Of a DNA stretch of 64,000 nt, positions 4,320 to 62,612 are shown in pieces. Source of the DNA: an uncultured Candidatus Berkelbacteria bacterium (GTDB lineage: Bacteria; Patescibacteriota; UBA1384; UBA12157; JAENIV01). The stretch spans positions 189,492 through 253,491 of the forward strand of contig OY969116.1 in assembly GCA_963698075.1 (NCBI GenBank). Direction: 5' to 3'. The translations under genes were made by a program, and so were the position numbers. Below the pieces are notes generated by a model that saw only the letters and a list, made by a program, of their open reading frames with translations, did not search any database and was not told where the DNA came from. The number at the start of each line of letters is the position of its first letter. Within the stretch, counting starts at the first letter, position 1.

Positions 4320-6721
4320 ATGGAAAACTACGACTTTAAATCTATCGAAAATAAGTGGCAAGAACGTTGGGAAAAATCTGGCGCTCATCAGGCAATCGAA
4401 CGTCCAAATGTTCCTAAGTTCTATTGCCTCGATTTCTTCCCCTATCCATCAGGCGAGGGCCTTCATGTCGGTCACTGGCGCGGCTATGTTTTATCTGACA
4501 TTATTTCTCGCTACCAAAAATTAAAGGGCAAAAATATCCTTCATCCAATGGGCTACGATGCCTTTGGTTTACCCGCAGAAAACGCCGCCATCAAAGCCAA
4601 TTCCCATCCTCAAATCTTTACCAATAAGGCCATCAAGCGTTTTCAAAAACAACTACGACAAATTGGCGCGATGTATGATTGGAATCGCGAAATTAATAGC
4701 TCTGATCCCCAATATTATCGCTGGACCCAATCGATATTTTTAAAGTTACACCAAGCCGGGTTTGGCTTATCGTCAAAAAGCGCCGGTTAATTGGTGCCCG
4801 GCCTGCCAGACTGTTTTAGCTAATGAGCAAGTCGTGGCCGGTGAATGTGAACGTTGTGGTGCCAAGACAATCAAAAAAGAACTCACCCAATGGTTTTTTC
4901 GCATCACAAAATATGCCGAAAAACTACTGAACAACTTAGATCAACTCGACTGGCCAGAAAGGACAAAAACTCTCCAGCGCAATTGGATCGGTAAATCTGA
5001 AGGGGCGATGATTAAATTCAAAATTCATGATTCACAATTTAAAGTTGATGTTTTTACCACCCGGCCAGACACTTTATTTGGCGCTACCTTTATGGTTTTG
5101 GCGCCAGAACACCCGATTGTTCAGCAAATCACTACCCCGGAAAATATTGGCGCTGTCCAAGACTATATTGAGAAAACACGTCAGGAATCAGAGCTTTTCC
5201 GCGAAACCGTTGAACGCGAAAAAACCGGAGTTTTTACCGGTGCCTATGCTATCAACCCTGTAAACAACGCCAAGATACCAATCTGGATTGCCGACTATTG
5301 TTTAATTCACTACGGCTCCGGCGCTGTTATGTGTGTCCCTGGTCACGACCGTCGTGATTTCGAATTTGCCAAAAAATTTGCATTACCCGTCGTTCAAGTA
5401 ATATCGCCAGATGGCAAAGTCAACGAGAAACTTCTGCCATATATTGAGTCGGGTTTCAATCTTAATTCGGGACAATACAACGGCCAAAAATCCGAAGACG
5501 CCAAACAGAAAATCACCGAAGATTTAAAAAAGAAGGGTTTGGCGGATTTTGCCACCAAATTCCGACTCCGTGATTGGTTGATTTCCCGGCAGCGTTATTG
5601 GGGGGCGCCGATTCCGATTATTTATTGTCAAAAATGCGGCGAAGTCCCCGTCCCGGAAAAAGAGCTTCCGGTCTTACTTCCAGAGGACGTTGAATTTAAA
5701 CCTAAAGGCGAATCGCCATTAAAACAATCAAAGAAATTTCTTAATACGACTCTGTCCGAAATGTGGCGGTAAAGCTACGCGGGAGACCGACACGATGGAT
5801 ACTTTTGTTGATTCCTCTTGGTATTTTTTACGGTTTACTGATCCAAAAAACAATAAAGAATTTGCCAGCCAAAAAGCCATCAATGTTTGGATGCCGGTTG
5901 ATCTTTATGTTGGCGGAATTGAACACGCCACCATGCACTTACTCTACGCCCGTTTTGTTACTTTGGCGCTTCACGATACTCGGGATTGTAAATTTTGATA
6001 AATTATGGTGAACCTTTCAAAAAACTTTTCAATATCGGTTTGATTTATCTTCACGGCGCCAAAATGTCAAAATCCCGTGGCAACATTGTTACCCCTGATG
6101 AGCTGGTCGCCAAATACGGTTCAGATGCCCTCAGGGGCTACGAAATGTTTGTCGGACCAGCAGATCAAGATAGCGAATGGCAAGTTTCAGGAATCACCGG
6201 TATTTATCGATTCTTAGAGAAAGTCTGGCGGTTTTTCTCACTTCAGGGCACAAAGGAAACATCAATTCAGAATAAACAAATAATCCATCGTCTGATCAGA
6301 AAAATTACTGAAGGATATTGAAAATTTCAGATTCAATACGGCTATTGCCATGCTGATGGAATCTTTTAACGATCTCGATGGAAATATTTCCACCGAGAAC
6401 CTTAAGACATTGGCAATTCTTATCTCACCATTCTTCCCCCACCTTGCCGAGGAAATTTGGGAAAAATTAGGTCAGTCAGAGTCTATTTTTACCGAAAGAT
6501 GGCCCAAGTATGATGCCGAATACCTGAAACTTAAAAAAATCAAAATCGCAATCCAGGTCAATGGTAAATTGCGAGATGTCATCGAGATTGATGTCGGTTT
6601 AAGTCAAAAAGAGGTTGAAGAAAAAGCTTTAACCGCTAAAGTTCAATTAATCATTGGTCCAAGAAAGATAGCCCGACAAATTTACGTTCCTGGAAAAATT
6701 GTCAATTTTGTGCTAGAATAA
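4320..6721 (+). pseudogene. leuS: leucyl-tRNA synthetase leuS, broken by at least 5 single-nucleotide frameshifts
   Basis: Fragments together carry the HVGH-like P-SGEGLHVGHW motif, VNWCPACQT, the CPKCGG zinc knuckle and KMSKS (AKMSKSRGN). Frame changes lie near 4770 (extra T in GGGTTT), 5770 (extra C), about 5990-6000 (two shifts) and 6316 (extra G). Confidence 0.85.
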
Positions 6722-27195: not shown

Positions 27196-27837
27196 CTAAA
27201 GAACTTTCTCAATTTCCTTCCAGACTTCCTCAATCATCGGCTCTCCATCGATGTTAATTAATTGACCTCTTTTTTGGTAGTACGAAATTAAAGGGGCGGT
27301 TTGTTTTTCGTAAGTCTCGATTCTCTTCGCCAAAACCTCTGGTTCATCATCATTCCTGAGAATTAATTTTCCACCACAGCTATCGCAGGTTACCTTCCCC
27401 TCGCCGACTGCATCGCGAAAAATCTTCCCGCATTTTTGGCAGATTCGTCTTTTGTGCATCCGCGCGATTAAAGATTCTGGCCTGACGCGGAGATTTAGAA
27501 TTTTAAGATTATCGAGGTTTTTCTCTTTTAAAAAAATATCCAAGTGGGCGGCTTGAAAAACCGTTCGCGGATAACCATCAAAAACGATTCCCTCATTAAT
27601 ATTAATTTCGCTCAGCTTTTTGGCGACGAATTTTTCTACCAAATCGTCGCTGACTAATTGGCCGCCCTCGATTGACTTGGAAAATTCCTCGCCCAAAGCC
27701 GTTTTTTTTCGGATTTCCTCGCGCATAAGATCACCAGTACCAAAATAAGTCAGGCCTAAAGATTGGGCCAGCTTTTTTGCCTGGGTGCCTTTGCCCGAAC
27801 CCGGCGGCCCTAAAAGAATAAAATTAGTAAATTTCAT
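27196..27837 (-). CDS. adk: adenylate kinase (with zinc lid)
   Basis: P-loop GPPGSGKGTQA; lid CxxC...CxxC (CQKCG...CDSCG). Confidence 0.9.
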   Translation of the reverse strand: MKFTNFILLGPPGSGKGTQAKKLAQSLGLTYFGTGDLMREEIRKKTALGEEFSKSIEGGQLVSDDLVEKFVAKKLSEININEGIVFDGYPRTVFQAAHLDIFLKEKNLDNLKILNLRVRPESLIARMHKRRICQKCGKIFRDAVGEGKVTCDSCGGKLILRNDDEPEVLAKRIETYEKQTAPLISYYQKRGQLINIDGEPMIEEVWKEIEKVL

Positions 27838-28478
27838 GATGATGTTCCCGTCGGCGTTGGGCTGATGCTGGGACTAATTGAGGGGCTGGGAGAAGGCGAG
27901 CTCGCATTAGAATCAACTACCTTATCTATTAACCATATATTGTTTTCCTGGGTTACTGTAAAGACTTTTACCTTGGGGCCCGTATAAATTAAATTTACTT
28001 TAACCGTGACGGTATTTTCATCGATCTTTTGGGTTGAAATTATCTCGTAGCTTCGTGCTTTCTCCGCTGAACCCAGAAAGTAATTCAGTTTCGCGCTTAA
28101 ATCGCTTAGATCTTTGCCATTAGCATCTTTAGTTGTTTCTAACTTCGCTTGGGCGACAATGGTCAAGAGGTCCCGCGCTTTATTGGCTTGAATTAGGCCG
28201 TCACTAGTGCTTGAAGATTTTAACCAAAAGTCTAGAAAGTCGGTGATGGTTTTTTCCGATTTTATTTTCCATATGGCCACGGTCACTTCCACTGAAGGCG
28301 AAGGCATGGCCTGACCCTTGGTGCCGATAATATAATTGGCATAATACCAATAGCCGCCACCGCCGATTATAAGAATGACGATTGTCACAATCAACCACTT
28401 AAGAATCCCGCCCCCTGACGACTCACCCGGTGTTTCGGAGCCATTCGCTCCCGGATTTTCCAAAACGCTCTGATTCAA
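27834..28478 (-). CDS. membrane-anchored hypothetical protein with Ser/Pro-rich tail
   Basis: N-terminal TM and a C-terminal SPSPSPSISPSISPTPTG low-complexity tail. Confidence 0.5.
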   Translation of the reverse strand: MNQSVLENPGANGSETPGESSGGGILKWLIVTIVILIIGGGGYWYYANYIIGTKGQAMPSPSVEVTVAIWKIKSEKTITDFLDFWLKSSSTSDGLIQANKARDLLTIVAQAKLETTKDANGKDLSDLSAKLNYFLGSAEKARSYEIISTQKIDENTVTVKVNLIYTGPKVKVFTVTQENNIWLIDKVVDSNASSPSPSPSISPSISPTPTGTSS

Positions 28479-28490
28479 AATATCTCCTTA

Positions 28491-29180
28491 TTAAATCTTT
28501 TTAATCGATTGGATCGCCCAAATCCCTTTTTCACCTTTTGTTATCGGCTGAGTAAGGGTGATTAAGAAGTTGCCGCCTTCGGAACTGGCCTGGACCGTGG
28601 CCGTGCCATTGGCGTCATCACGGTTCTTGATAGTGTAAGTATCAGTCACTTTTAAACCGTAGACGTTCGGCGCATCCGCTCTGGCAGTTTCATCGGGAGC
28701 CAGGCGCCATTGGGTTTTGCCTTGGTCGACTTGGTTTTGAATGGCTGTCGCCTTGGTGTTATCGATCATAAACTCGACTTGACCATTTTCCGGAATGTAA
28801 AGTACCTGGCCTGCTTGAATTTTATCAGCATCCGTAATCCCGTTGGCTTCGGAAAGGTCCGCCAAGGTAGTCCCTTGTTTTTGGGCAATGCCAAAAAGAG
28901 TCTCTTTGGCTTGGATGGTATAGGTTTTATTCGGGCTTGATGGTTTTTCCGTCGCCGGCCGTGAAACCGCGGTCGAAACCTGCGGCCCCGGCGTAGCCGC
29001 CGCCTCCGTTGAGGCGGTCGCCGGAGATTTTGTACTCTCGACTCCTGCTTTCTTCGAGTTGGTCGAACGGCTTTTGGCAGCAAAAAAAGTCGTGGTTGAA
29101 GCCAAAATTGCTACTAATATAACCAATCCATAAAATAAAATTTTCATTTGCTTGTTCATCATTCTCCTTACTGGAGCCAT
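28491..29180 (-). CDS. LysM-domain cell-surface protein
   Basis: YTIQAKETLFGIAQKQGTTLADLSEANGI...GQVLYIP is a LysM motif. N-terminal signal anchor. Confidence 0.65.
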   Translation of the reverse strand: MAPVRRMMNKQMKILFYGLVILVAILASTTTFFAAKSRSTNSKKAGVESTKSPATASTEAAATPGPQVSTAVSRPATEKPSSPNKTYTIQAKETLFGIAQKQGTTLADLSEANGITDADKIQAGQVLYIPENGQVEFMIDNTKATAIQNQVDQGKTQWRLAPDETARADAPNVYGLKVTDTYTIKNRDDANGTATVQASSEGGNFLITLTQPITKGEKGIWAIQSIKKI

Positions 29181-30151
29181 CCTAAAATTTGAATCGCTTT
29201 ACCCATGGCTTTTTGGCTCGAATCCTTTAGATTTTCGATAAAAATTTGGCCATTGGTTTTATCGTCGATACTCTGGTTGTACTGAGCCACCAAGAAACAC
29301 AAAAACTTTTCATCGGCACTCGAGAATATGAAATTCGCCTGGCCACCGCTAAAGTCAGCCACTTTATTCATCTTATCATCAGCGATTTCAATTGTCTCGA
29401 GACTACCTTCGTGGCTGCCAATGTTTCTCAGAGAGAAAACAATTTTCCGATCTGAAACCCATGAAAGCCAATCAACGATTTTGCCTTCAAAACTTTTTAG
29501 AGTAGAAACATCTTTAGAACTAACATTGACAATTTTAATCTGGCCCTCAGTTCCCGAAGAAGCGGCAAAAGCCACTTTTGATCCTAGCGTGTCCCAGGCC
29601 GGAGATCTGATTTCTGAGGAACTATTAAATAATTTTTGCTGGTCGGAACCGGTATTTTGCTCTATATAAAGGGTGTAGCCGTAATTTTCCTCCGTGTTGG
29701 AAAATTTGATATAGGCGATCTTTTCGGCATCTTGGGTAATTGACCAGTAAAGCGGGCGGCTGAAAGTGCTCTGGAGCGTCTCTTTGGCCCCACTGCCAAG
29801 ATTAATCAAGATTAGTTTGCCCGAGCCTGCCTTAGGGTCTTTATTGGTAATCGCCAGAATCTTTTGATTGCTTGCCGCCAGGTTAGAAACCTTAATTAAT
29901 TTTTCTGATTCATCAGCGTCAGTAAAGATTTTTTTTAACTTGCCGCCTAAATCTTTCATCCAGATTTCTTTAGCATTACCCGAAATCAAGTAAACGAAGG
30001 CGGCATCTTTTCCGCTTGCCTGAATCAGTGGATTGGATGTCCCGGCTTGAGGCTCAGACGCCGTTTGATTAAGATAGGTTTTATTGACATACCAAGCTAA
30101 CCCACCAATCACAAGCAAAATCAAAATAGTAGTGATTGTTTTTTGGGCCAT
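29168..30151 (-). CDS. TolB-like beta-propeller (PD40 repeat) exported protein
   Basis: N-terminal anchor and repeated PD40-like segments. Confidence 0.45.
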   Translation of the reverse strand: MAQKTITTILILLVIGGLAWYVNKTYLNQTASEPQAGTSNPLIQASGKDAAFVYLISGNAKEIWMKDLGGKLKKIFTDADESEKLIKVSNLAASNQKILAITNKDPKAGSGKLILINLGSGAKETLQSTFSRPLYWSITQDAEKIAYIKFSNTEENYGYTLYIEQNTGSDQQKLFNSSSEIRSPAWDTLGSKVAFAASSGTEGQIKIVNVSSKDVSTLKSFEGKIVDWLSWVSDRKIVFSLRNIGSHEGSLETIEIADDKMNKVADFSGGQANFIFSSADEKFLCFLVAQYNQSIDDKTNGQIFIENLKDSSQKAMGKAIQILGWLQ

Positions 30152-30182: not shown

Positions 30183-30506
30183 TTATTCGGCGGCTGAGGC
30201 GCTGGTGGTCGGTGACGGAGAAACAGCAGCCGAAGCCGATGCCGATGGTGATGCCTTGGGCGAAGTCGAAGCCGAGACAGTGGGCGAAGTCGTCACACTG
30301 GTAGTCGGCGAAGGTGATTTCTTCACTGTCACCGTTGGCGAAGGTGAAGCGGTTTTCGTCCCAGTCTTGGATGACTTGGTGTAATACCAAACTCCGACGG
30401 CCGCCAGAATGACAACGACTAAGATGATCAAGAGCCACTTAAGGGCTCCGCCACCGCCTCCAGCGGGCATGGGTGCCTGAGGCATCCCGGGTTGTGGTTG
30501 GTTCAT
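30183..30506 (-). CDS. membrane-anchored Ser/Thr/Pro-rich small protein
   Basis: MNQPQPGMPQ..., TM, then an SPSPT-rich tail. Confidence 0.4.
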   Translation of the reverse strand: MNQPQPGMPQAPMPAGGGGGALKWLLIILVVVILAAVGVWYYTKSSKTGTKTASPSPTVTVKKSPSPTTSVTTSPTVSASTSPKASPSASASAAVSPSPTTSASAAE

Positions 30507-30534
30507 TAAAACCCTCCTTAACTTTAATATTAAA

Positions 30535-31074
30535 CTATTTATTTGTGAATTGGAAGGTGGAAAGGACATTATTGGTAATAAAATCCGGCACAGTCGTTGA
30601 TTTATCTTTCCAATCACTCGTCGGTACGCCCGTATTTAAACCATAAGCAAAAACATACTGATTGTTTTGATTAATCAATGTCGGTATCGGGCCTTGCTCT
30701 TTTTGGATAGCACTCCACTGGGTCGGCGTGTAAACATAGAGATAAAATGCTTCATATACCCCTGGAGCATCACTTGACGGCAGATCCATCGTGTAAAATG
30801 CCGTGGTGCCTTGGCTGGTGGATTTTTTCATAAAGTATCCCTGCCAAGCTCCCGGTAAAGTCAAAGTAAAACCGTAATCTTGATTGGTATAGGTTAAACT
30901 GGCCGAAGCCGGTGGCGAAGTTGTAGTCGTTGCTGTTGGACTCGGATTTAAAGTCGTCGTTCCGGTTGGCTGAACGTATTTGATATAGTACCAGTAAGAA
31001 ATTCCTAAAATCACGACTAACACCAAAACTGTTAATAGCCAGGGGAGAAAATTGGTCTTTGTTTTTTGATCCAT
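30535..31074 (-). CDS. membrane-anchored hypothetical protein
   Basis: N-terminal TM and a T/S/P-rich linker. RBS GAGAGGGG. Its ATG directly follows the third secY-tail copy. Confidence 0.5.
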   Translation of the reverse strand: MDQKTKTNFLPWLLTVLVLVVILGISYWYYIKYVQPTGTTTLNPSPTATTTTSPPASASLTYTNQDYGFTLTLPGAWQGYFMKKSTSQGTTAFYTMDLPSSDAPGVYEAFYLYVYTPTQWSAIQKEQGPIPTLINQNNQYVFAYGLNTGVPTSDWKDKSTTVPDFITNNVLSTFQFTNK

Positions 31075-31090
31075 GTCTGCCCCTCTCGAA

Positions 31091-31276
31091 TTAATAGGTT
31101 TCGTATTGACGCATCAGCAACTGCGCCTGAATTTGTCTCATCGTTTCAATTACGTTTTTCGTAACCGGAAAAGGAATAGAGACAATGGCTTTTGGCAACT
31201 GGTACGATTTAATAATTTTCGTACTGTCGCATCAATAACTGGGCTTGGATCTGACGCATTGTCTCTATTAAAATTC
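31091..31276 (-). repeat. two extra diverged copies of the secY 3' terminus (last about 21 codons plus stop), tandem to the native secY end at 31321-31386
   Basis: Minus-strand translations are IETMRQIQAQLLMRQYENY* (31209-31271) and IETMRQIQAQLLMRQYETY* (31091-31153). The native end is IIETMRQIQAQLLMRQYETY*. Period is about 112-118 nt. Nucleotide identity is about 75-85 percent, with differences almost all synonymous. Confidence 0.8.
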
Positions 31277-31320
31277 TCCTTGAATTTAATTGAAACTTTT
31301 CCTTTTACCATTCTTAAGGT

Positions 31321-32664
31321 TTAATAAGTCTCATACTGGCGCATCAGAAGCTGCGCCTGGATTTGCCTCATCGTTTCAATTATAACAGAAACCATAATTA
31401 AAACACCAGTGCCACCAATAACCAAAGTGTTAACCTTCGTAATCGCCTGAACAATAAACGGCAATACCGCAATTACTCCCAAGAAAACGGCCCCGGTGAG
31501 ATTTACCCGAGAAATAATCCGTGAAAGATACCCTGCCGTCTCCTGGCCCGGCCTGACCCCAGGGATAAAGCCGCCTTGTTTTTGTAAGTTTTCGGCAATC
31601 TGGGTCGGTTTGAGGATAATCCCGGTATAGAAAAAGGTAAAAAGGATTACCAAAATAAAGTAGGCAATCCCATAAAACCAGTTATTGGTAAAAAGGTTGG
31701 CCACCCAGGTAGCGGCCTGGGCAAGCCACTCCGAACGCGCTTGAGAGAGGAATTTGGCCCCGACGCCCGGGAAAAGCATAATTGACATCGCAAAAATGAT
31801 TGGGATAACCCCAGCCGTATTGACCCGAATCGGTAAATGGGTGTCCACCCCGCCGTATGCCTTCAATCCACGAATGCGCCTGGCGTAGGAAACGGGAATT
31901 TGCCGCCGGCCTTCATTGACGATGACGATTAAAATCACCACCGCCAGGGCGATTAAACCAAAGATGATTAGACCAATAATTTTCGTCGTATCTAAAACCG
32001 CGAGGGTATTGCGAACCTGGGCCGGCAGGCCCGCCACAATCCCTAACGTAATAATTAAAGAAACGCCGTTACCGATCCCATTTTCGGAAATGAGCTCGCC
32101 GATCCACATGAGAAGTATCGTTCCAGCGGTAATCGAGATAAGCATTACCGCCAACTGTATCGGCGTCCAAGAAATGACAATTTGCTGATTGCGAAGCAAA
32201 ACCAACATGCTGTAAGACTGAATCAACGCCAATGGCACGGTTAGGATCCTCGTCCAATAATTAATCTTTTGCTGGCCGCTCTCCCCTTCTTTTTGGAGCT
32301 CCTCTAAGGAAGGAATGACCATCGTCAAGAGCTGGACAATAATTGAGGAAGTAATGTAAGGACCAACGCCCATCATAATAATCGAAAAGTTCTCCATTGC
32401 CCCGCCGGAAAACATGTTCAAAAGCCCGAAAATTTGGTTCCGGCCAAAAAAATCTCTCAGTTGAACAATATCGACGCCGGGTAAAGGAATGTGGGCCAAA
32501 ACCCTGGCGATCAGTAACAGGGCGACGGCATATAAAACTCGCCGTCTTAAATCCGGCAAAGTAAAAATCTGTTTTAAAGTCTCCCAAAAACGCATAAAAA
32601 CAACCTTTCTTTTTAGGTCTATTTCTATCTTATCACTTGCTCCGAAATAGTCAATAAATCCCAA
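31321..32664 (-). CDS. secY: preprotein translocase SecY
   Basis: 447 aa, 10 TM, in the canonical position after rplO in the spc operon. Confidence 0.9.
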   Translation of the reverse strand: MGFIDYFGASDKIEIDLKRKVVFMRFWETLKQIFTLPDLRRRVLYAVALLLIARVLAHIPLPGVDIVQLRDFFGRNQIFGLLNMFSGGAMENFSIIMMGVGPYITSSIIVQLLTMVIPSLEELQKEGESGQQKINYWTRILTVPLALIQSYSMLVLLRNQQIVISWTPIQLAVMLISITAGTILLMWIGELISENGIGNGVSLIITLGIVAGLPAQVRNTLAVLDTTKIIGLIIFGLIALAVVILIVIVNEGRRQIPVSYARRIRGLKAYGGVDTHLPIRVNTAGVIPIIFAMSIMLFPGVGAKFLSQARSEWLAQAATWVANLFTNNWFYGIAYFILVILFTFFYTGIILKPTQIAENLQKQGGFIPGVRPGQETAGYLSRIISRVNLTGAVFLGVIAVLPFIVQAITKVNTLVIGGTGVLIMVSVIIETMRQIQAQLLMRQYETY

Positions 32665-32671
32665 GCTTAGT

Positions 32672-32700
32672 TTGACAGAAGGAATCGTCTTTTATATAAT
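32672..32700 (+). promoter_or_regulatory. consensus sigma70 promoter (TTGACA-17-TATAAT), divergent from secY
   Basis: Exact consensus hexamers with 17-nt spacing. RBS AAGGGAG and the ATG at 32729 are downstream. Confidence 0.5.
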
Positions 32701-32728
32701 CTTTTTAGACGCGACAAGGGAGCAAGGC

Positions 32729-33124
32729 ATGGGACAGGTAACGATCGACTCTCATGACGGCGTACCACTAACTTGGCCGCACTGCAAAGATCTGCGCTGG
32801 TACCGATCCGGGAGTTTCAGTCTGAACGATCACGACCGTCAGGCGATTCTCAACCATTTCGGCATGAAGGATTGGTACTTCCGCCTCGAACGGGTAGACC
32901 GAACTTCTCCGGCCCAACTCCGGGAATTCGCCGAAAAAGGCATTAGCCTGGATCTGCTCGACAATGAGGAGCTTTTGACGCTTCATCAAAGAACGGCCAC
33001 GCAGTTCGGCATCGTCTTGACCGAAGACCAGGACCAGGAACTGATGACCCGTTGGAAAGGGTTGATGACGAAAGTCGGAGAGACGATCATCGCGCGGATG
33101 CGCCCGAATCCGAATATCACCTAA
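32729..33124 (+). CDS. GC-rich hypothetical protein (about 131 aa)
   Basis: MGQVTIDSHDGVPLTW...; compositionally foreign. Confidence 0.45.
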   Translation: MGQVTIDSHDGVPLTWPHCKDLRWYRSGSFSLNDHDRQAILNHFGMKDWYFRLERVDRTSPAQLREFAEKGISLDLLDNEELLTLHQRTATQFGIVLTEDQDQELMTRWKGLMTKVGETIIARMRPNPNIT

Positions 33125-33239
33125 CGATCAGATCCATCAAATCTTACAAGAGCCCAAAGCCGGGCTCTTTTCCGTTCCCTTGACACCATTAATTTTTGGT
33201 TTATGATAGAACTAAGAACCCAGAACTCAAGGAGGAATA

Positions 33240-33986
33240 ATGAATAAAAAATGGTTGTTTATTGGTCTAATAATTTTATCACTTATCGCGGGTGGCGCAA
33301 TTTATGCCAAATTTGCCGGCCAAGCCCGGGCCGCGTTCCCAGGCGCCCCAGACGGTATTGATTTGCACATCTTACTTGAAGTCAGTGCCGATAATAGCGC
33401 CACTTGGCATAATTTTACCGGGACTGATATCCAGGGCGGCGAGACGCTCAATATCAATTCGGGGACGACGGTTCTTTTTCGGGTGAAAGTTTGGAATGAC
33501 GGCTTGGGGGCTGCGGGTGGCGTCCAAATTATCGGTGAGATTGAAGATGCCGAATATATCACTGAGGCGGGAGTGACCAATAATCAGCTTGGCGACCATC
33601 CATTTACTGGCTTTGATATTGAAAATGGAACACAGGGAGAAGTCGCGGTTGTTAATTTCGGCGGCAATCAAAATAATGGTTATGAGGGACTCCAGGGGTC
33701 AATTACGTTTAGTCTTGATTTTCCGACCGACCAAACAATCCTCATCGGCGCGGTTTGGATTCACGATTATGCCTTAATTGGTTATCGAAATAATAATCAA
33801 TTTATTCGTGTGGCTCACGCCAATGGTGTCAATAACTTTTCACAAGTCAGATTAGTCGTTAATCGTGCTCACGCCAGCATCGGCGTAAAACTGACTCCCA
33901 CGCCATCACCCGCCGCCTCCGCGATCGCGACCTTACCTTCCACCGGTAGCTCGATTTTGGAGGATTTAAAGAACTGGTGGCGCTAA
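33240..33986 (+). CDS. secreted protein with C-terminal LPSTG motif (paralog of 35957..36763)
   Basis: Signal anchor. Shared N-terminal block GIDLH...SADN.ATWHN. C-terminus ...ATLPSTGSSILEDLKNWWR* lacks a TM segment. Confidence 0.6.
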   Translation: MNKKWLFIGLIILSLIAGGAIYAKFAGQARAAFPGAPDGIDLHILLEVSADNSATWHNFTGTDIQGGETLNINSGTTVLFRVKVWNDGLGAAGGVQIIGEIEDAEYITEAGVTNNQLGDHPFTGFDIENGTQGEVAVVNFGGNQNNGYEGLQGSITFSLDFPTDQTILIGAVWIHDYALIGYRNNNQFIRVAHANGVNNFSQVRLVVNRAHASIGVKLTPTPSPAASAIATLPSTGSSILEDLKNWWR

Positions 33987-34462
33987 ACTTAATTTATCTA
34001 ATTATTGCTGCGATTCTTCTTTTAGCCGGGGCGGCGAGCACGCTTTTGCTAGTTTTTCCGTCCTTGGCTTTTATGTTTTTGGTCGCTTTCGGCTACGCCT
34101 TACTCGATCATTTTGAACATCTTTCGGCGGTCGAACTGGGAATTTTGGCGGCCATGGCCATCTTAGCCGAAACCATTGATTATTTGGCCGGATTTATCGG
34201 TGCTAAAATCGGCGGTGCCAAAACTAAATCATTGCTTTTAGGAATAGTGGGGTTAATCATCGGAATGGTAATTTATCCACCCTTAGGCGGCATTTTTGGA
34301 CTCTTTTTAGGCATTGTCCTGGGTGAAATTTTGTCATACAAAGAATTAGCAAAAGCCTTCAGAGCCGGCTTCGCCGGGGTTCTTGGGTCACTTGCCGGTA
34401 CAATCGTTAAAATGATTTTAGCAGTTTTGTTTTTAGTCCTCTTTTTAGTCTTTACGCTTTAA
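33977..34462 (+). CDS. DUF456-like small membrane protein (paralog of 63357..63839)
   Basis: About 70 percent identical to the ORF at 63357-63839; Gly-rich TM helices. Confidence 0.6.
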   Translation: MALNLIYLIIAAILLLAGAASTLLLVFPSLAFMFLVAFGYALLDHFEHLSAVELGILAAMAILAETIDYLAGFIGAKIGGAKTKSLLLGIVGLIIGMVIYPPLGGIFGLFLGIVLGEILSYKELAKAFRAGFAGVLGSLAGTIVKMILAVLFLVLFLVFTL

Positions 34463-34787
34463 GGTATAACAAAAGATTACCAACGATGAGGGTTTCATCT
34501 TCGGTGTAGGGCGAGTAGAGGGCCCGCGCAGAGACTTCTTCCCAGGTTGGGTAATTGATGGCTGAGGTGATGATCCCGGCGCCATCGACATTGAGAATCC
34601 TTAGCAGGGTGAAGTCAGTCTCGAGCACGATCTCGCCCGGGCCATGGAAAGCCACATCTTGACCGCCCCATGATTCATCCAGCCGGATCTCGATTTGGCT
34701 ACCTCGCAAGCGGCCACCGATAGCGCCACAGCCGACAGGAGTGATAACCCGGGTACCAGGTTTCTTCCACTTGGGGCTCAAGGGCAT
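34452..34787 (-). CDS. GC-rich hypothetical protein
   Basis: Probable start MPLSPKWKKPG after RBS AAGGAGG. Promoter TTGACT-17-TATTAT upstream on the minus strand. Confidence 0.4.
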   Translation of the reverse strand: MPLSPKWKKPGTRVITPVGCGAIGGRLRGSQIEIRLDESWGGQDVAFHGPGEIVLETDFTLLRILNVDGAGIITSAINYPTWEEVSARALYSPYTEDETLIVGNLLLYLKA

Positions 34788-35133
34788 GGACGTTACCTCC
34801 TTAATTGAGCTAGGTAGATAATAACATGAAGATTTCCGAAAGTCAATCAAAAAACAGGTTGGTGCTTTTCTTGATTCTACAAACGCTAAAATCTTCTTTC
34901 CCCTTGACTTTTTTCCCAACCTATGCTATACTTAATTAACTTAAGAGTTAGCTACGTACTAAATTTTAAGTATTGGCTCGTTGTCAAGACCAAACGTTCT
35001 TCAATACTCCCATTTATATTCGGCATTACTATTCCGAACGGAAGTCAACTTAGAGAATGCTTGGCAGCGGGCTAAATCTCTCTTCGACCATCTTACACCG
35101 GTCGTTTTGTGGTATGATTAAAAAAGGAGGAAT

Positions 35134-35598
35134 ATGAATAAGATCTGGAAATTTGTGATTTCAATTCTCGTAAGTTTTTTAGCTGGAGCCATTGGCTCGA
35201 TTTTTACCACGCCGGCAATCAGAGACTGGTATCCAACCTTAGTCAAACCCGGGTTTAATCCTCCCAATTGGCTTTTTGCGCCAGCCTGGACCGTTCTATA
35301 TATCTTAATGGGAATTGCTTTGTATTTGGTCTGGATCTCGAGCAGGGAAAATAAAAAGATTGCCTACATTGTCTTTTTTGTCCAGTTGGCCTTAAACGCT
35401 CTTTGGTCTTATATTTTCTTTGGCGCTCACGAGTTGGGCTGGGCTTTTTTCGAGATTGTCGTGTTGTGGCTGGCCATTCTGGGGACAATTATTGCTTTTA
35501 ATCGCATCTTAAAACCAGCGGCTTATTTGCTAATTCCCTATATTCTTTGGGTGATATTCGCCGCTGTTTTGAACTACAGTGTTTGGCATTTAAATTAA
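35134..35598 (+). CDS. TspO/MBR (tryptophan-rich sensory protein) family membrane protein
   Basis: NPPNWLFAPAWTVLYILMGIA...WSYIFFG matches conserved TspO motifs; 5 TM. Confidence 0.7.
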   Translation: MNKIWKFVISILVSFLAGAIGSIFTTPAIRDWYPTLVKPGFNPPNWLFAPAWTVLYILMGIALYLVWISSRENKKIAYIVFFVQLALNALWSYIFFGAHELGWAFFEIVVLWLAILGTIIAFNRILKPAAYLLIPYILWVIFAAVLNYSVWHLN

Positions 35599-35621
35599 AA
35601 ATTGATGGGGCCAATAAGATT

Positions 35622-35882
35622 ATGAAAAAATATTGGTCTGGGAAAGTAACAAAAGAAAGTAATGCTTTAGATTTAGAACCGGGTGTTTTTACATGGGACG
35701 ATCCGAAAAGAATCGCCCAGTCGCTCGCAAATTCGGCGAAAATTAGTACCCGTCGCAAAGGCACGCCAATGCAGTCGGCAATGTCAATGTTAAATTTTTA
35801 TATTAATCGCGCGGGCAAAAATCTGTCCAAAGAGCGCCGCGAAATTCTTGAGAAAACCAAAGTAGAACTTAGAAAGATGTAA
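35622..35882 (+). CDS. DUF3175-like small protein
   Basis: LDLEPGVFTWDDPKRIAQSL...STRRKGTPMQSAMSMLNFYINRAGKNL matches the DUF3175 conserved core. Confidence 0.5.
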   Translation: MKKYWSGKVTKESNALDLEPGVFTWDDPKRIAQSLANSAKISTRRKGTPMQSAMSMLNFYINRAGKNLSKERREILEKTKVELRKM

Positions 35883-35956
35883 TATTAAAACTTGACAAAT
35901 TTCTCGGGTAGTGTATGTTATTTATGAGATAAGTTTACAAGAACTACGGAGGGGAA

Positions 35957-36763
35957 ATGTTCCAACACATGCAAAAAATTTGGATTTTATTCTTGGTTTT
36001 TGGACTTATGGTTCTCTCTGGTGCGGCTTATCTTTTTTCTGGTACAAAAAACGTTTTGGCCGCCCCCCATGTAGGTGACGGCGTTGATTTACACGTTACG
36101 GCCCTCGGCAGTGCCGATAACGGGGCTACTTGGCATAATTATAATGGGACCGAGAACCCTCAATGGGAAACATTGACTGTCGCTCCCGGAGCGACGATTA
36201 GATTTGCAATTTTTGTTTTTGGCGTTGATCAATCGGTGGCGGCGGCAAATGTTAAAATTGAAGGTAATGTTAATTTAACCGATCCTACCTACATCACTGG
36301 TTTACGTGTTGACTTTCCAGATGCAGATCTTGATGACAATGCTTTTATTGGCTTTACTTTCCGCGGCGGCGGTGAGGGCACCGTGGCCCAAGTTCTACCC
36401 GGAAATCTCAATACGCAAATATTAGTGGGTACATTTCAGCTTTCCAACTATTTTCCCCTTGGTCAAACAATCTTACTTGGTCATGTGGACATCACCGACT
36501 ATACACCAATAGTTGGGGGTTATCATCCGTTAAAAAACCTTCGTCAAGCCTTAGGTATTAAGACTGCCCGAGCCGAAGGGGTTGGTCGTTTTTCAGACAT
36601 TAGGATTGTTGTCAATGGCAATGGAATACTTCATGGGACGACTCAAGCGACTCCCACGCCGACGCCAACATCAACAGTCTCACCTGCCAGCCAAATCACC
36701 AATCTTCCTCAAACCGGTGGGGGCATTCTTGATAATTTGTCAAGATTTTTAAGATTATATTAA
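35957..36763 (+). CDS. secreted protein with C-terminal LPQTG motif (paralog of 33240..33986)
   Basis: GVDLHVTALGSADNGATWHN... and the C-terminus ...NLPQTGGGILDNLSRFLRLY*. Confidence 0.6.
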   Translation: MFQHMQKIWILFLVFGLMVLSGAAYLFSGTKNVLAAPHVGDGVDLHVTALGSADNGATWHNYNGTENPQWETLTVAPGATIRFAIFVFGVDQSVAAANVKIEGNVNLTDPTYITGLRVDFPDADLDDNAFIGFTFRGGGEGTVAQVLPGNLNTQILVGTFQLSNYFPLGQTILLGHVDITDYTPIVGGYHPLKNLRQALGIKTARAEGVGRFSDIRIVVNGNGILHGTTQATPTPTPTSTVSPASQITNLPQTGGGILDNLSRFLRLY

Positions 36764-36783
36764 AGAGATACTCAATCTTTTCT

Positions 36784-37041
36784 TTGACTAGAGCTGGTAA
36801 GCCAATTAAAGGAGGTTTGATGAGAAAAGTGTTACTTTGGGGAGGGCTTGTTGGGACGATCGTTTTTTTTGCTTTTGCTTTTTTGGCCGGCGCCAGCAAC
36901 AATGGCAAGGCCATCTTGCCAGGAATCTACGGCACCAGCGGTCTGATGTGGGCCTTTTTTGCCGTCATTACCTTAATCCTATTCATCATCGGTTTGATTA
37001 TGGTGATTGTTAATGCCATCAAAAATCGAAATAGTCAATGA
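36784..37041 (+). CDS. small membrane protein (2 TM)
   Basis: Hydrophobic 85-aa ORF; probable start MRKVLLWGG. Confidence 0.4.
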   Translation: MTRAGKPIKGGLMRKVLLWGGLVGTIVFFAFAFLAGASNNGKAILPGIYGTSGLMWAFFAVITLILFIIGLIMVIVNAIKNRNSQ

Positions 37042-37508
37042 AAAACATCATTATTGCGATTTTGGTTTTGATCATTGTTGGTGTTGCCGGGTGGGGTTTT
37101 TATCAAGGATACAAAGTAAAATCTTACGCCAAGGAAATTAAGGGCATCATCGACCAAAGTACAAGTAAATGGACATATAACCAAATTACTATCAAGGGTT
37201 ATAATAGTAAGGCGGAGATGGAGACTGACGCCAATTTAGTCGTTAGCGATTCGAAAGAACAATTAGCCAAATTAGACAAATTAAACTTTTCTTCAAAAAC
37301 CGCTGCTCTCGAGCAAAAAACAAAAGATTATTTTAATACTGCTGTTATCGCCGGCCAAAAAGCCCAGGAACTATTGAAAACCAATGCTTTTACGGATCTA
37401 ATTTCAACCCCGTTAGTGACTGCCGAGCAAGAAACTATTTTACAAACTTATCCTGACCAAATCAAATCCGAAGCGCAAAACCTACAAAAAACTATTTTTA
37501 CTTTTTAA
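37038..37508 (+). CDS. membrane-anchored hypothetical protein
   Basis: N-terminal TM and a coiled-coil-like body. Confidence 0.45.
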   Translation: MKNIIIAILVLIIVGVAGWGFYQGYKVKSYAKEIKGIIDQSTSKWTYNQITIKGYNSKAEMETDANLVVSDSKEQLAKLDKLNFSSKTAALEQKTKDYFNTAVIAGQKAQELLKTNAFTDLISTPLVTAEQETILQTYPDQIKSEAQNLQKTIFTF

Positions 37509-51163: not shown

Positions 51164-53263
51164 TTATTTTTGTTTCCCCTCAATAATCTTTTGCGCTATA
51201 TGACGAGGCACTTCGGCGTAGTGGGAAAATTCCATAGTGAAGCTTGCCCGGCCTTGGGACATACTCCGTAAAGAAGTGGCGTAGCCAAACATTTCCGCCA
51301 AAGGCACTTCGCCGTCAATCACCTTCATTTTCGCTCGATCCGACATTTCTTTAATATGAGTTCTCTTAGAATTTAAATCCCCCAAAACATCACCCATAAA
51401 ATCTTCTGGCACGACGACTTCAATCCGCATAATTGGCTCCAATAAAACCGGATTGGCTTTTTTAACTCCGGCCTGCAAAGCAAGTGAGCCGGCAATTTGG
51501 AAGGCAATTTCCGAAGAATCAACTTCGTGAAAAGAGCCGTCGTACAAAGTTGTTGACATATCCACCAACGGATAGCCGGCAATCACGCCTCGGGTCATTG
51601 CTTCTTTAATCCCCTTTTCCACTGCCGGAATAAATTCTTTAGGAATTGTGCCGCCGACAATTTTATCGATAAATTCAAAACCTTTGCCGCGTTCCATTGG
51701 GTTTAATTCTAACCAAACATGGCCGTATTGACCGCGGCCGCCTGTTTGACGGATATATTTACCTTCAGCTTTAATACCGAGCGCTTTGATCGTTTCTTTG
51801 TAAGCAACTTGCGGGGCGCCGACATTGGCCTCAACTTTAAATTCCCGTTTCATCCGGTCAACAATAATTTCCAAATGTAGCTCGCCCATGCCGGAAATAA
51901 TTGTCTGACCGGTTTCCGGATCGCCTTTGACCCGAAAGGTCGGATCTTCTTGAGCTAAGCGATTTAAAGCAATGCCCATTTTTTCCTGATCCTGCTTGGT
52001 TTTTGGTTCAATCGCCACACCAATTACGGGCTCTGGGAAAGTAATTGCCTCCAAAATTATTGGCGATTTTTCGTCACATAAAGTATCGCCGGTAGTAGTA
52101 TCTTTTAGGCCCACAGCCGCGGCAATTTCGCCGGCAAAAACTTCGCTGACTTCTTCGCGATGTTGAGCATGCATTCTGACAATTCGGCCGATGCGTTCTT
52201 TTTTGTCTTTAGAAGAATTAAGGACATATGTGCCGGCTTTTAACATCCCAGAATAAACTCTAAAAAAAGTTAAAGTCCCAACAAATGGATCAGCAGCGAC
52301 TTTAAAAGCCAAAGCGGCGAATGGTTCGGCGTCATCGGGCGATCTTTCGAGTTCTTCTTCGGTTCTTGGCTTCCAGCCCTTGACTGGGGGAATATCGAGC
52401 GGTGAAGGCAAATATTCAACCACTGCATCCAAAACCTGCTGCACGCCTTTGTTTTTTAGGGCTGACCCACAGAAAACTGGTACTAATTTATTGGCAATGG
52501 TGGCATTTCGAGAACTTTTTTTAATTCTTCATAGGTCGGTTTTTGACCTTCTAAATATTTATGGAGTAACTCATCATCTTGCTCGGCGATTTTTTCGACT
52601 AAAATTTGATGGAGTTTTTCCGCTTTTTCTTTGAAGCTCCGCCGGGATTTCGAGTTCTTTAACATCTTGACCTTTATCGCCATGGAATTCATAAGCTTTC
52701 ATTTTCAAAACATCGATCACTTGCGAAAATTTTTCTTCATGGGCGTTGGGGAATTGGATGGCAACGGCGTTGTCAGTTAAACGTTCTTTAATTGAATCAA
52801 ATGACTTATTAAAATCTGCGCCCATGCGGTCAAGTTTATTAATAAAACAAATCCGTGGCACCCCGAATTTATCCGCCTGATGCCAAACCGTTTCCGATTG
52901 CGGCTCAACCCCGGCAACGCCGTCAAAAACCACGATCGCGCCATCAAGAACGCGCAAAGAGCGCTGGACTTCGGCGGTAAAATCAATGTGACCGGGAGTA
53001 TCGATAATATTAAAGCGAATTTTTTCTCGAGGATTATCACGGCTGGCCCAAAAACAAGTGGTGGCGGCTGAAGTAATCGTAATTCCCCGCTCGCGCTCCT
53101 GGGCCATCCAGTCCATCACGGCCGCCCCTTCGTGAACTTCGCCGATTTTATAGGTTTTGCCGGTATAAAACAGAACCCGCTCGGTCATCGTCGTCTTCCC
53201 AGCGTCGATATGGGCAATGATGCCAAAATTACGGGTTTTTTCAAGTGAATATTCTCGTGCCAT
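51164..53263 (-). pseudogene. fusA: elongation factor G fusA, two frameshifts (near 52650 and 52455)
   Basis: N-terminal [17 protein letters not shown] and NKLDR. Middle [29 protein letters not shown]. Then [36 protein letters not shown] continues to the C-terminus in other frames. A one-nucleotide deletion (CC to C) lies at about 52455. Confidence 0.85.
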
Positions 53264-55489: not shown

Positions 55490-59298
<3,809 letters not shown>

Positions 59299-59370
59299 TA
59301 TTCTCCTTCATCAATCGGTTTTGATTTTAATTCGGGGGCAGGAACCGCTAATTCGGTGACCTCAATATCC

Positions 59371-62612
<3,242 letters not shown>

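Follow-up and report, generated by a model that had tools for sequence, protein, structure and literature searches.

In the window (the whole 64,000-nt stretch of Berkelbacteria DNA that was analysed), secY lies on the minus strand (32595-31321) and encodes an intact protein of 424 aa with a match to the Pfam SecY family (E=4e-102); a protein 100% identical to this SecY is present on a public contig of 929 kb. The C-terminal end of the protein is IETMRQIQAQLLMRQYETY*. The initial annotation of this DNA had claimed three tandem secY 3' ends, and our analysis bore this out: the last 20 codons and the TAA are present three times in register (copies hereafter called tails), at 31321-31380, 31209-31268 and 31091-31150, with start-to-start distances of 112 and 118 nt. 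This array is the sole short-range repeat of at least 35 nt within the 64 kb, and Tandem Repeats Finder overlooks it because the spacers between the tails (52 and 58 nt) are mutually non-homologous. A gap of 16 nt separates tail 3 from the next gene (ATG at 31074). The features of the locus are as follows.

31321..32595, minus strand: secY coding sequence (Pfam SecY, E=4e-102)
31381..31413, minus strand: codons immediately upstream of the insertion point, GGCACTGGTGTTTTAATTATGGTTTCTGTTATA; synonymous conservation elevated
31373..31382, minus strand: core TAATTGAAAC at the junction of gene body and tail 1, putative insertion/crossover point; TAATWGARAC is common to all junctions
31321..31380, minus strand: tail 1, IETMRQIQAQLLMRQYETY*, the present functional secY end
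31269..31320, minus strand: spacer A, 52 nt; spacer type also in L081, L083, L085 and L163
31261..31296, minus strand: junction hairpin A, GTTTCAATTAAATTC-AAGGA-GAATTTTAATAGAGAC; predicted fold of -5.1 kcal/mol, z = -1.5
31209..31268, minus strand: tail 2, IETMRQIQAQLLMRQYENY*, probable displaced former end; 52/60 match to the functional tail of L166
31151..31208, minus strand: spacer B, 58 nt; 55/58 identity to the spacer after the functional secY end in L166
31091..31150, minus strand: tail 3, IETMRQIQAQLLMRQYETY*; 9 synonymous differences from tail 1
30535..31074, minus strand: first downstream gene, 179 aa, membrane-anchored, no family, outside the repeat; marks the ancestral right-hand context

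Same-codon use in the GGCACTGGTGTTTTAATTATGGTTTCTGTTATA stretch reaches 0.66, compared with a mean of 0.44, and ranks second among the 10-codon windows of secY. Based on this conservation, the stretch may form the left half of the target site; the evidence is weak because a high same-codon window is not unique in the gene. Spacer A contains an inverted repeat of the tail-1 start (GTTTCAATT, 31288-31296) together with the 5' arm and loop of hairpin A, and the 3' arm of this hairpin is the start of tail 2. Hairpin A is degraded in the window (two mismatches and a bulge); its homologues pair almost perfectly in loci with nearly identical tails, such as L081 (-11.8 kcal/mol). The 3' 24 nt of spacer A align with 83% identity to the ribosome-binding region of the gene at 30506. 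In spacer B, the inverted repeat (CATTGTCTCTATT, 31175-31187) is complementary to the tail-2 start at 13/13 positions and is followed by hairpin B (CCTTTTCCGGTTACGAAAAACGTA, 31151-31174), for which L161 has 23/24 identity. Tail 3 adjoins the 179-aa gene via GAGGGGCAGAC and the start codon, and the same junction is seen after the last tail in L161 and L081 and after the only tail in L162; homologues of the 179-aa gene after the last tail were found only in these three loci. A plus-strand open reading frame across the array (31073-31324, 83 aa) was rejected as a real feature, as it belongs to no family and the length of the array varies in relatives.

Divergence, distribution and displacement of the tails

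Tails 3 and 1 differ at 9 nucleotides, all synonymous (9/9), and tails 2 and 1 differ at 15, of which 14 are synonymous and one causes a Thr>Asn change. The near-total synonymy described in the initial annotation is upheld, and its counts of 8 and 13 nt are corrected to these values. The codon directly 5' of IETM varies among copies (I, L or V) and is the homology boundary. We ran the synonymous/nonsynonymous comparison on the window tails and obtained pS of 0.7-1.3 and pN of 0.02-0.1; synonymous sites are essentially saturated, and the differences include multi-step codon switches at Arg (AGG/CGT) and Leu (CTT/TTA). When 12 adjacent-copy pairs from 10 of the arrays were pooled, we counted 118 synonymous to 35 nonsynonymous differences (path-averaged Nei-Gojobori, which is conservative), and these counts reject neutral drift of a displaced copy (P<1e-20). 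Displaced tails mostly carry lineage-specific residues in common with the tail of their own genome, and such sharing requires either closely related donors or patchy gene conversion. Conversion-like patterns are visible in L166, L003 and L081: the L003 copies are identical over the first 33 nt, with all seven differences within the last 27, and copies 1 and 2 of L166 both contain CAGCTTGTxATGCGACAGTACGAA.

Comparable arrays occur in 13 further, independently assembled loci of the Berkelbacteria clade (14 including the window). Arrays of two, three or more copies are present in the window, L001, L002, L003, L005, L081, L083-L086, L161, L163, L166 and L167; a single tail is present in L004, L082, L087-L089, L162, L164, L169-L172 and L221; and no tail arrays were found in about 145 other CPR secY loci. 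Periods between copies are 109-123 and 238 nt across the arrays. Identical copies occur in L001, L005, L084 and L086, and those in L084 form a perfect 121-nt tandem on a contig that stops within the repeat, with the last copy out of view. We found no strain-level copy-number polymorphism, either between L221 and L222 (identical) or among four L001-type assemblies, in which the array is base-identical. These data also bear on the suspicion that the copies arose through misjoining or repeat expansion in an error-prone assembly. Base-level quality in the window is imperfect, with frameshifts in leuS, fusA and rpoC; however, homologous arrays in 13 other loci come from different projects, samples and assemblers, four assemblies agree on the L001 array, and the copies differ by 15-25%, which makes collapsed or expanded reads impossible. 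We therefore give the artefact explanation almost no weight.

Window unit 2 (tail 2 plus spacer B) is displaced in the window and corresponds to the working secY end in L166 (spacer 55/58, tail 52/60), where it is functional. The secY bodies of the two loci share only 78% identity, and outside the unit the flanking sequences are unrelated (g179 in the window, an ORF84-like gene in L166). The last copy of an array adjoins the same downstream gene as the tail of single-copy relatives (L162 compared with the window, L161 and L081; L164 compared with L166). Defects in displaced copies take the form of stop codons, a frameshift or truncation, and the three defective copies (L002 copy 2, L081 copy 3 and L001 copy 3) are all the most distal of their arrays; the latter two are also of allele types foreign to their own genomes. 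The unit shared with L166, the conserved downstream junction and the distal position of decay together argue that the tails are displaced former ends and that insertion was serial. On the strength of these alignments, the proposal in the initial annotation that the copies were once functional ends of different secY alleles, stacked by repeated insertion at a fixed site that pushed each earlier end downstream, is supported. Tail 1 would then be the most recently acquired end and tail 3 the oldest copy, the original end of the window lineage. We infer horizontal movement of units mainly from one very clear pair, the window and L166, together with weaker cases.

Unit architecture and the proposed mode of insertion

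The repeating unit consists of a tail and a spacer of 46-63 nt, giving a length of about 110-120 bp, and the 3' part of the spacer holds an inverted repeat of the tail start followed by a small hairpin. The fourteen arrays contain ~17 inserts that share this conserved architecture, and all are 46-63 nt long except for one of 178 nt in L005. The core TAATWGARAC is present at every junction of every array, with inter-copy homology starting at TAAT, and the three spacer types all finish ...TAAT at one identical codon. IS200/IS605-type single-strand elements combine a subterminal hairpin with cleavage at a fixed short motif and insert 3' of it without duplicating the target. At secY, every unit ends in a hairpin and TAAT, after which insertion occurs; a left-end hairpin is absent, and the hairpin motifs are not dispersed elsewhere in the loci. 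We rejected a dispersed REP-like element, as the hairpins are confined to secY.

In 9/9 informative units, the inverted repeat of the spacer is a closer match to the unit's own (preceding) tail than to the one that follows, and the helix between tail start and spacer repeat, confined to the first 9-13 nt, covaries at two variable synonymous sites (own-tail pairing, 1/500 shuffles vs. next-tail pairing, 117/500). In every case the crossover maps to the left of tail position 4-7; seven informative junctions place it within about 4 nt at the 5' edge of the tail, and none of the seven has a chimeric tail start. Where adjacent tails are identical, the junction palindrome has a predicted folding energy of -11.8 to -15.7 kcal/mol (z = -2.4 to -4.8), and that of L167 has the form 12-8-12. 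The type B hairpin consists of an outer stem, an internal loop, an inner stem and a tetraloop; the hairpins of L001 and L084 have an identical 25-nt core. The loop of the palindrome varies in length and sequence between spacer types and the left arm of the secY site is weak, so the site does not fit a canonical tyrosine-recombinase core.

Selection on the displaced tails in place, either as translated mimics of the SecY C-terminus (16-20 residues) or as RNA structure in the secY 3' untranslated region, would be in keeping with the conservation of amino acids in displaced copies, lineage-specific residues included, and AAGGAG lies 7 nt before the first codon (ATA) of copy 2. Start codons and ribosome-binding sites are inconsistent, however: type B and C spacers have none, and the L005 tails have no Met. 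The spacing of copies (109-123 and 238 nt) keeps no fixed reading frame, three displaced copies carry stops, a frameshift or truncation, and single-copy relatives manage without displaced tails. With regard to RNA, cUUCGg loops occur in three type-B hairpins and predicted unit folds reach z ~ -4 in window unit 2 and L166 unit 1, but several others are not above shuffles (L084, z = -0.8; L167, z = -1.1). The initial annotation had set a conserved, covarying RNA structure against its coding interpretation; a covarying helix does exist, yet it accounts for the first 9-13 nt and not for codon-periodic conservation over 60 nt. Selection in place is, in our assessment, highly improbable. Assignment to a known RNA family was rejected, since Rfam at permissive E-values returned only chance snoRNA matches.

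Pfam and NCBIfam identified no integrase, transposase or reverse transcriptase among ~50 window ORFs (all those of at least 210 aa included) and no recombinase domains in the islands lying 5' of secY in the window and L003; the upstream neighbours of secY are rplO or unrelated small genes, none with an integrase domain. Neither an element body nor a recombinase was found in about 30 Berkelbacteria loci, and no autonomous parent element was found in 160 genome and metagenome loci or in IMG/VR. Within IMG/VR, the tail-coding pattern had 0 matches as a phage source, and the pattern of palindrome plus tail start had 48, of which 0 continued as a secY tail. No Y1/HUH transposase (TnpA or RAYT) was found in the 64-kb window of the roughly 929-kb genome, and no free or circular units, or units elsewhere than secY, were seen. 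Three other candidates were rejected: a diversity-generating retroelement (the third-position changes are of all base types, and the window has no reverse transcriptase), CRISPR (the repeats are coding, and associated genes are absent) and an integron-like arrangement of the small genes nearby (hairpins or cores of this kind are missing from the other intergenic regions).

The initial annotation had envisaged integrase-bearing elements with deleted bodies, that is, a conventional prophage, ICE or IME with a secY 3' end in its attP that integrated serially and was then almost wholly lost, as in CIME-like accretion. Gene-restoring 3'-end integration, CIME decay and tandem accretion are established for streptococcal IMEs and ICEs (PMC5704250), and in the arrays the direct repeats include the gene end, differ mainly at synonymous sites and have their older copies in distal positions. 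Nevertheless, the longest of the ~17 inserts is 178 nt, and the conserved, uniformly short architecture of 46-63 nt is unlike random deletion scars; no integrase was found in the window or any locus examined, and no phage contig with a tail in IMG/VR. Beyond the 27.8-31 kb block, where an integrase had been suspected, lie adk and map; the block itself (g327-LysM-g214 before adk in all Berkelbacteria loci examined) is conserved clade synteny and was rejected as a mobile element. We consider a history of deleted elements improbable.

Our main reading, to which we assign a probability of roughly one half, is that miniature 'tail cassettes' without genes have been inserted serially at one point in secY and now lie stacked in the array. 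Each cassette would comprise a replacement for the last 19-20 codons and stop of secY plus a spacer of 46-63 nt, which would end in an inverted repeat of the cassette's own first 9-13 nt and a short hairpin or loop. The insertion point would be fixed at the core TAAT|WGARAC (codons Ile-Ile-Glu-Thr). An arriving tail would become the working SecY end and shift the earlier tail downstream, outside the gene, where it would decay (stop codons, truncation, frameshift) or be patch-converted by its neighbours. A circular unit, or a tandem of identical units, may provide the complete palindromic site (repeat, loop, tail start); exchange between this site and the one in secY would take place at the base of the 3' arm, in the manner of integron cassettes, through a recombinase acting in trans; transfer between lineages would presumably occur by DNA uptake. 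A double-stranded circle of 110-120 bp is an awkward recombination substrate, which is a difficulty for this model, as is the likeness of spacer A to the downstream ribosome-binding region, which could indicate an origin by local duplication.

A rival account, possible but rather doubtful, requires no dedicated machinery: tandem duplication at microhomology (TAAT) or template switching at a fragile quasi-palindrome in secY (GTTTC..GAAAC) would copy the tail and downstream leader, and later homologous or homology-facilitated illegitimate recombination with DNA acquired by uptake from related Berkelbacteria would swap individual tails or units, and conversion would homogenise the rest. Identical copies in four loci, including the perfect tandem of L084, agree with duplication, as do the 83% identity of the spacer A 3' end to a ribosome-binding region, the similarity of the L005 hairpin to the ribosome-binding hairpin of its next gene, the conversion-like mosaics in L003 and L166, and the fact that no recombinase was found; the raised synonymous conservation just 5' of the junction could anchor recombination. 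However, simple tandem duplication requires a spacer after the last copy, and there is none (the L084 end being unseen). Crossovers within 60-nt tails of 75-85% identity should scatter, whereas 7/7 informative ones are at the 5' edge; duplication also leaves unexplained why the inverted repeat is universal and why it covaries with the preceding tail, and the three spacer types share their ...TAAT end at one codon.

If serial insertion of tail cassettes is correct, the unit would be smaller than any gene-restoring integrative unit seen to date, consisting of a tail and a site with no cargo or enzyme, and in this CPR lineage it would occupy a gene that is both essential and universally conserved. 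More tentatively, these units may represent an undescribed class of ~115 bp gene-free mobile cassettes, made up solely of a replacement secY 3' end and a folded recombination site, which would insert serially at a single nucleotide position of secY through integron-cassette-like exchange at the hairpin base, catalysed in trans, and spread between species. Our literature search found no account of integration at secY or of CPR arrays of this kind; to our knowledge, secY is no reported integration site, and we know of almost no mobile elements of this CPR lineage. The stack of displaced tails would preserve, as a dated record, one insertion after another and the exchange of genes among Berkelbacteria species, and the fixed junction and palindromic site would provide a handle for recombinase discovery; a hairpin-recognising CPR enzyme would interest genome engineering. 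The arrays would also carry a lesson for annotation: a 'ghost' gene end that follows a gene and codes almost perfectly may be neither translated nor under selection where it lies.

Comparison with known systems

Phage 21 and e14 integrate at icd in E. coli, replacing the 3' end of a protein-coding gene. Streptococcal IMEs and ICEs integrate at the 3' ends of ribosomal-protein and other housekeeping genes (PMC5704250). As in both of these cases, the DNA arriving at secY would bring the last codons of its target and leave the gene intact, and the old end remains as a displaced direct repeat with mostly synonymous differences. In the window and 13 other loci, the inserts are flanked by direct repeats with the secY 3' end; the working gene end is restored (secY, 424 aa), and the differences are allele-like (14:1 and 9:0 synonymous to nonsynonymous). 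Unlike these elements, the insert is 46-63 nt (178 nt in L005) without integrase, cargo or transfer genes, and the host is a CPR bacterium.

According to PMC5704250, which draws on Pavlovic 2004 and Bellanger 2011, CIMEs and tandem accretion involve recombinase-less, att-flanked units stacked at one site through site-specific insertions in succession. The secY units are similarly att-flanked, have no recombinase of their own, are stacked at one site and may be mobilised in trans. CIMEs are recognisable remnants of larger ICEs with existing full-length relatives, whereas no parent element was found for the secY units in the 160 loci or in IMG/VR, and the units have a uniform minimal architecture.

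Like integron attC, the 3' end of the secY unit is predicted to fold as an imperfect palindrome with an outer stem, an internal loop, an inner stem and a variable loop, and a one-base bulge is conserved in the type A hairpins. The newest unit adjoins a fixed insertion site, as in integrons, and the boundary of the unit is likewise at the base of the 3' arm, so that a unit's first bases complement the 5' arm of its own site and not that of its neighbour. Unlike integrons, the array has no IntI, attI or Pc; the secY arms are (CAT)TGTYTCWATT ... AATWGARACA(ATG), with GTTTCWATT / AATWGAAAC where attC has RYYYAAC / GTTRRRY, and the unit carries a gene fragment instead of an ORF, with its insertion site within an essential gene.

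The IMEX elements CTX, TLC and VGJ exploit XerCD at dif. The secY units resemble them in having no integrase of their own, a folded or palindromic attP, and serial tandem integration that regenerates the target; they differ in having a target other than dif, in being much smaller and in not replicating.

The secY repeat array and its gene neighbourhood

The initial annotation described three secY 3' ends in tandem, and the anatomy of the window confirms this:

32595-31321, minus strand: secY, 424 aa, intact (Pfam SecY, E=4e-102)
31321-31380, minus strand: tail 1, the secY terminus, 20 codons plus TAA, IETMRQIQAQLLMRQYETY*
31209-31268, minus strand: tail 2, repeat of the last 20 secY codons plus TAA
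31091-31150, minus strand: tail 3, repeat of the last 20 secY codons plus TAA

Tails (copies c1 to c3) are numbered outward from the gene body, and a tail plus the spacer after it constitutes a unit. Start to start, the tails lie 112 and 118 nt apart; spacer A (52 nt, after tail 1) and spacer B (58 nt, after tail 2) have no relation to each other. The array is the sole short-range repeat of ≥35 nt within the 64 kb. Copy 3 differs from copy 1 at nine positions, all of them synonymous (9/9), and copy 2 differs at 15, with 14 synonymous changes and one Thr>Asn; the counts first reported, 8 and 13, were slightly low. Multi-step codon switches are among the differences (Arg AGG/CGT, Leu CTT/TTA), so constraint acts on the protein sequence. 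A plus-strand 83-aa ORF antisense to the entire repeat region (31073-31324) is probably spurious, as it has no family match and its length varies in relatives.

On the minus strand, the canonical rpsE-rplO-secY-adk-map order is kept with three interruptions: ~5 kb of genes, most of them on the plus strand, separates rplO from secY; five small genes for membrane or secreted proteins (31074-27834) lie between secY and adk; and a single plus-strand gene lies between adk and map. Within the secY-adk block, a TolB/Tricorn-like beta-propeller protein of 327 aa, a LysM protein and a 214-aa protein (27834-30151) have homologues in the same order in nearly all Berkelbacteria-clade secY loci examined (L001-L005, L081-L089, L162-L172); the block is therefore not a recent element. 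The next outgroups do not have it and carry adk directly after secY, and, within this region, variation between genomes affects only the one or two small genes nearest secY. Neither the ~50 window ORFs searched nor the islands upstream of secY in the window and L003 yielded an integrase, transposase or reverse transcriptase, so the suggestion that an integrase neighbours the array is not supported.

The rplO-secY junction is a second insertion hot spot. Inserts were observed in the window (32672-37508, ~5 kb; TspO, DUF456 and unknown genes), in L162 (1-5534; a type I restriction-modification system, a ParE/Phd toxin-antitoxin pair and RadC) and in L003 (1140-10000, ~9 kb), and no integrase was seen in them.

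Displaced tails in related genomes

We surveyed 160 secY loci from genome and metagenome collections and 13 Berkelbacteria-clade loci obtained via SecY homologues, using each locus's own tail peptide as the query. Extra tails are present in the window, L001, L002, L003, L005, L081, L083, L084, L085, L086, L161, L163, L166 and L167; a single tail is present in L004, L082, L087-L089, L162, L164/165, L169-L172 and L221/222; and none of ~145 loci from other CPR groups has an extra tail. Single-copy and array-bearing genomes are intermingled in the SecY tree.

An assembly artefact might be suspected, given that leuS, fusA and rpoC are frameshifted in the window; however, arrays recur in assemblies from various projects and assemblers, and the L001 array is identical to the base across four assemblies, which excludes this explanation. 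Based on six-frame translation, frameshifts or in-frame stops break leuS (4320-6721, at least four frame switches), fusA (51164-53263) and rpoC (55490-59856), suggesting assembly indel errors, possibly from unpolished long reads, rather than real pseudogenes.

Twelve adjacent-copy pairs from 10 arrays contain 118 synonymous and 35 nonsynonymous differences, by a path-averaging count that overstates nonsynonymous change; pS is 0.7-1.3, indicating saturated synonymous sites, and pN is 0.02-0.1. Neutral drift of the displaced copies in situ, with only the first copy constrained, predicts ~60% nonsynonymous differences and is rejected (P<1e-20). Selection on displaced tails where they now stand, as translated mini-peptides or as 3'-UTR RNA structure, fits poorly with inconsistent start signals and reading frames, with RNA pairing that spans only 9-13 nt, with the lack of the whole arrangement in single-copy relatives, and with the decay of three copies. 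These three, the only defective copies, are L002 c2 (nonsense codon), L081 c3 (5' truncated, with a stop) and L001 c3 (5' truncated and frameshifted); all three lie farthest from the gene body in their arrays, and the latter two are allele types foreign to their own genomes.

Window unit 2 (tail 2 plus spacer B) and unit 1 of L166 are almost the same piece of DNA; in L166, an intact secY has this unit as its functional end. Spacer identity is 55/58 nt, unconstrained part included, and tail identity is 52/60; the secY bodies are 78% identical, a divergence at which synonymous sites are saturated. The flanks of the shared unit are unrelated: on one side, the window has hairpin A (the spacer A junction hairpin) where L166 has the gene body; downstream, a 179-aa gene in the window stands against an ORF84-like gene in L166. 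L161, a closer relative (94% SecY identity), has the same hairpin B as the window but a different unconstrained spacer part, and its repeat matches its own tail; the window-L166 identity is thus not a general spacer constraint. These comparisons indicate that the unit descends from a recent common ancestor and has moved horizontally.

The gene downstream of an array's last tail, and the junction between the two, are those found at the lone tail of single-copy relatives (L162 for the window, L161 and L081; L164 for L166; L082 and L170 for L002, L163 and L167). It follows that new units are inserted on the gene-body side of the tail already present, and the last tail, judged by its context, is the ancestral one. 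In L083 and L089, whose SecY proteins are 95% identical, divergence jumps precisely at the tail start; directly after the stop, L083 has ~430 nt of contiguous extra sequence (2042-2470 versus L089 11276-11300) comprising spacer A, a second tail and an 83-aa coiled-coil ORF.

The comparative evidence supports the original proposal that former functional ends were stacked via serial insertion at secY, though not its corollary that classical integrase-bearing elements inserted and later lost their bodies. Such a history would match the known accretion of decayed elements at the 3' ends of housekeeping genes (PMC5704250); however, 0 of ~17 inserts contain an element body, they have a minimal architecture in common, and no phage carrying the tail turned up in two IMG/VR scans.

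Unit anatomy and junction hairpins

Displaced tails start at the same codon in every case, and the core TAATWGARAC is common to every junction, the native one between gene body and tail 1 among them (the L005 equivalent is ATCGAAAC). Each spacer consists of ~20 nt of non-conserved sequence, an inverted repeat of the tail start (GTYTCWATT, up to 13 nt) and a short hairpin/loop ending in TAAT immediately before the next tail.

Spacer types at secY arrays
Type A: window spacer 1, L081, L083, L085, both L163 spacers
Type B: window spacer 2, L001, L002, L003, L084, L086, L161, L166; variant in L005
Type C: L167; 12-8-12 palindrome

Between identical or nearly identical tails, the repeat, loop and next tail start are predicted to form a strong hairpin, with values of -11.8 to -15.7 kcal/mol (z -2.4 to -4.8); the hairpin is degraded where neighbouring tails have diverged, as in the window. 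Nine units are informative in that successive tails differ within the first 13 nt, and in all nine the repeat complements the preceding tail better than the following one; window spacer B, for instance, matches the tail-2 start at 13/13 positions and the tail-3 start at only 10/13. At two variable synonymous sites, repeat and tail start covary, with 7 double changes, a number reached by 1/500 shuffles, whereas pairing with the next tail does not exceed what shuffling gives (117/500). Tail and following spacer are thus inherited jointly as one unit, and each junction hairpin takes its 3' arm from the unit next to it.

In the unit shared by the window (31151-31268) and L166 (1751-1868), the non-conserved spacer part TCGTACCAGTTGC also pairs with the tail 3' end GCGACAGTACGA, so that the entire unit forms one long hairpin with the stop codon at its centre (RNA fold z ~-4), a fold observed in none of the other units. 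The 178-nt insert in L005 (11282-11459) contains three copies of a 23-nt hairpin with a cUUCGg loop, GCGGAAATTTTCTTCGGAAAATT, each followed by a secY fragment with a different start (ATGG; ATGGTTTCAGTTATCAT; full tail) and separated by two other palindromes, which suggests that events were nested or recurred and that there is a second target five codons upstream.

The ribosome-binding-site hairpin of a 107-aa gene (30505-30528, ATTAAAGTTAAGGAGGGTTTTAAT) aligns with the 3' end of spacer A (31267-31290), the first tail codon ATA occupying the place of the gene's ATG; in several relatives this start region is GGGTTTCAATGAAC, which resembles repeat plus core. The ribosome-binding region may be the origin of type A spacers, or the resemblance may be chance. 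Local microhomology-mediated duplication combined with inter-lineage recombination could draw on this match, which amounts to 83% identity between the 3' 24 nt of spacer A and the ribosome-binding region of the gene at 30506 (borderline significance), and it fits arrays whose copies are identical. Yet it accounts neither for the universal repeat, which covaries with the tail before it, nor for the fixed exchange point, nor for the lack of a spacer after the last copy.

Proposed insertion mechanism and related systems

At seven informative junctions, the exchange point falls within ~4 nt at the extreme 5' edge of the tail, and none has a chimeric tail start. Because, in addition, all three spacer types end in TAAT at the same codon, we infer site-specific exchange. 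The sequence comparisons show serial insertion of tail-plus-spacer units at one fixed position, each replacing the functional tail, and at least one transfer between lineages. That this occurs by a site-specific, miniature-cassette mechanism we rate at about 50%. A unit that is circular, or that sits in a tandem of identical units (as L084 has), would contain the palindromic site in full, with a 3' arm identical to the secY target. The intermediate may be a double- or single-stranded circle, and movement between lineages might, as a guess, involve DNA uptake. Neither a free unit nor a recombinase was found. The palindrome arms enclose a loop that is not conserved, and the left arm of the native secY site is only weak (GTTTC...GAAAC, with synonymous conservation modestly raised over the 10 codons upstream). 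Patchy gene conversion between tails clearly operates as well: tails share an identical 5' half in L003 and a 3' segment in L166, and tails that differ by 1 nt in L081 have spacers ~30% different. If confirmed, the cassette mechanism would define a distinct minimal class of mobile DNA.

The secY arrays belong to none of the three families they resemble, namely 3'-end integrative elements, CIMEs and integron cassettes. Searches for the features that define these families (integrase, element body, R-box sequences, attI/intI, cassette ORFs) found none of them. With 3'-end integration (phage 21/e14 at icd; streptococcal IMEs/ICEs), they share the restoration of a protein-gene end after insertion, and with CIMEs, the tandem accretion of att-flanked units without a recombinase. 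The likeness to integron cassettes lies in boundary logic and a folded site. In integron arrays, the 3' arm of the junction hairpin belongs to the neighbour and the exchange point is at the base of the attC 3' arm; the same relationship between a unit's own repeat and its neighbour's 3' arm is found in the secY arrays.
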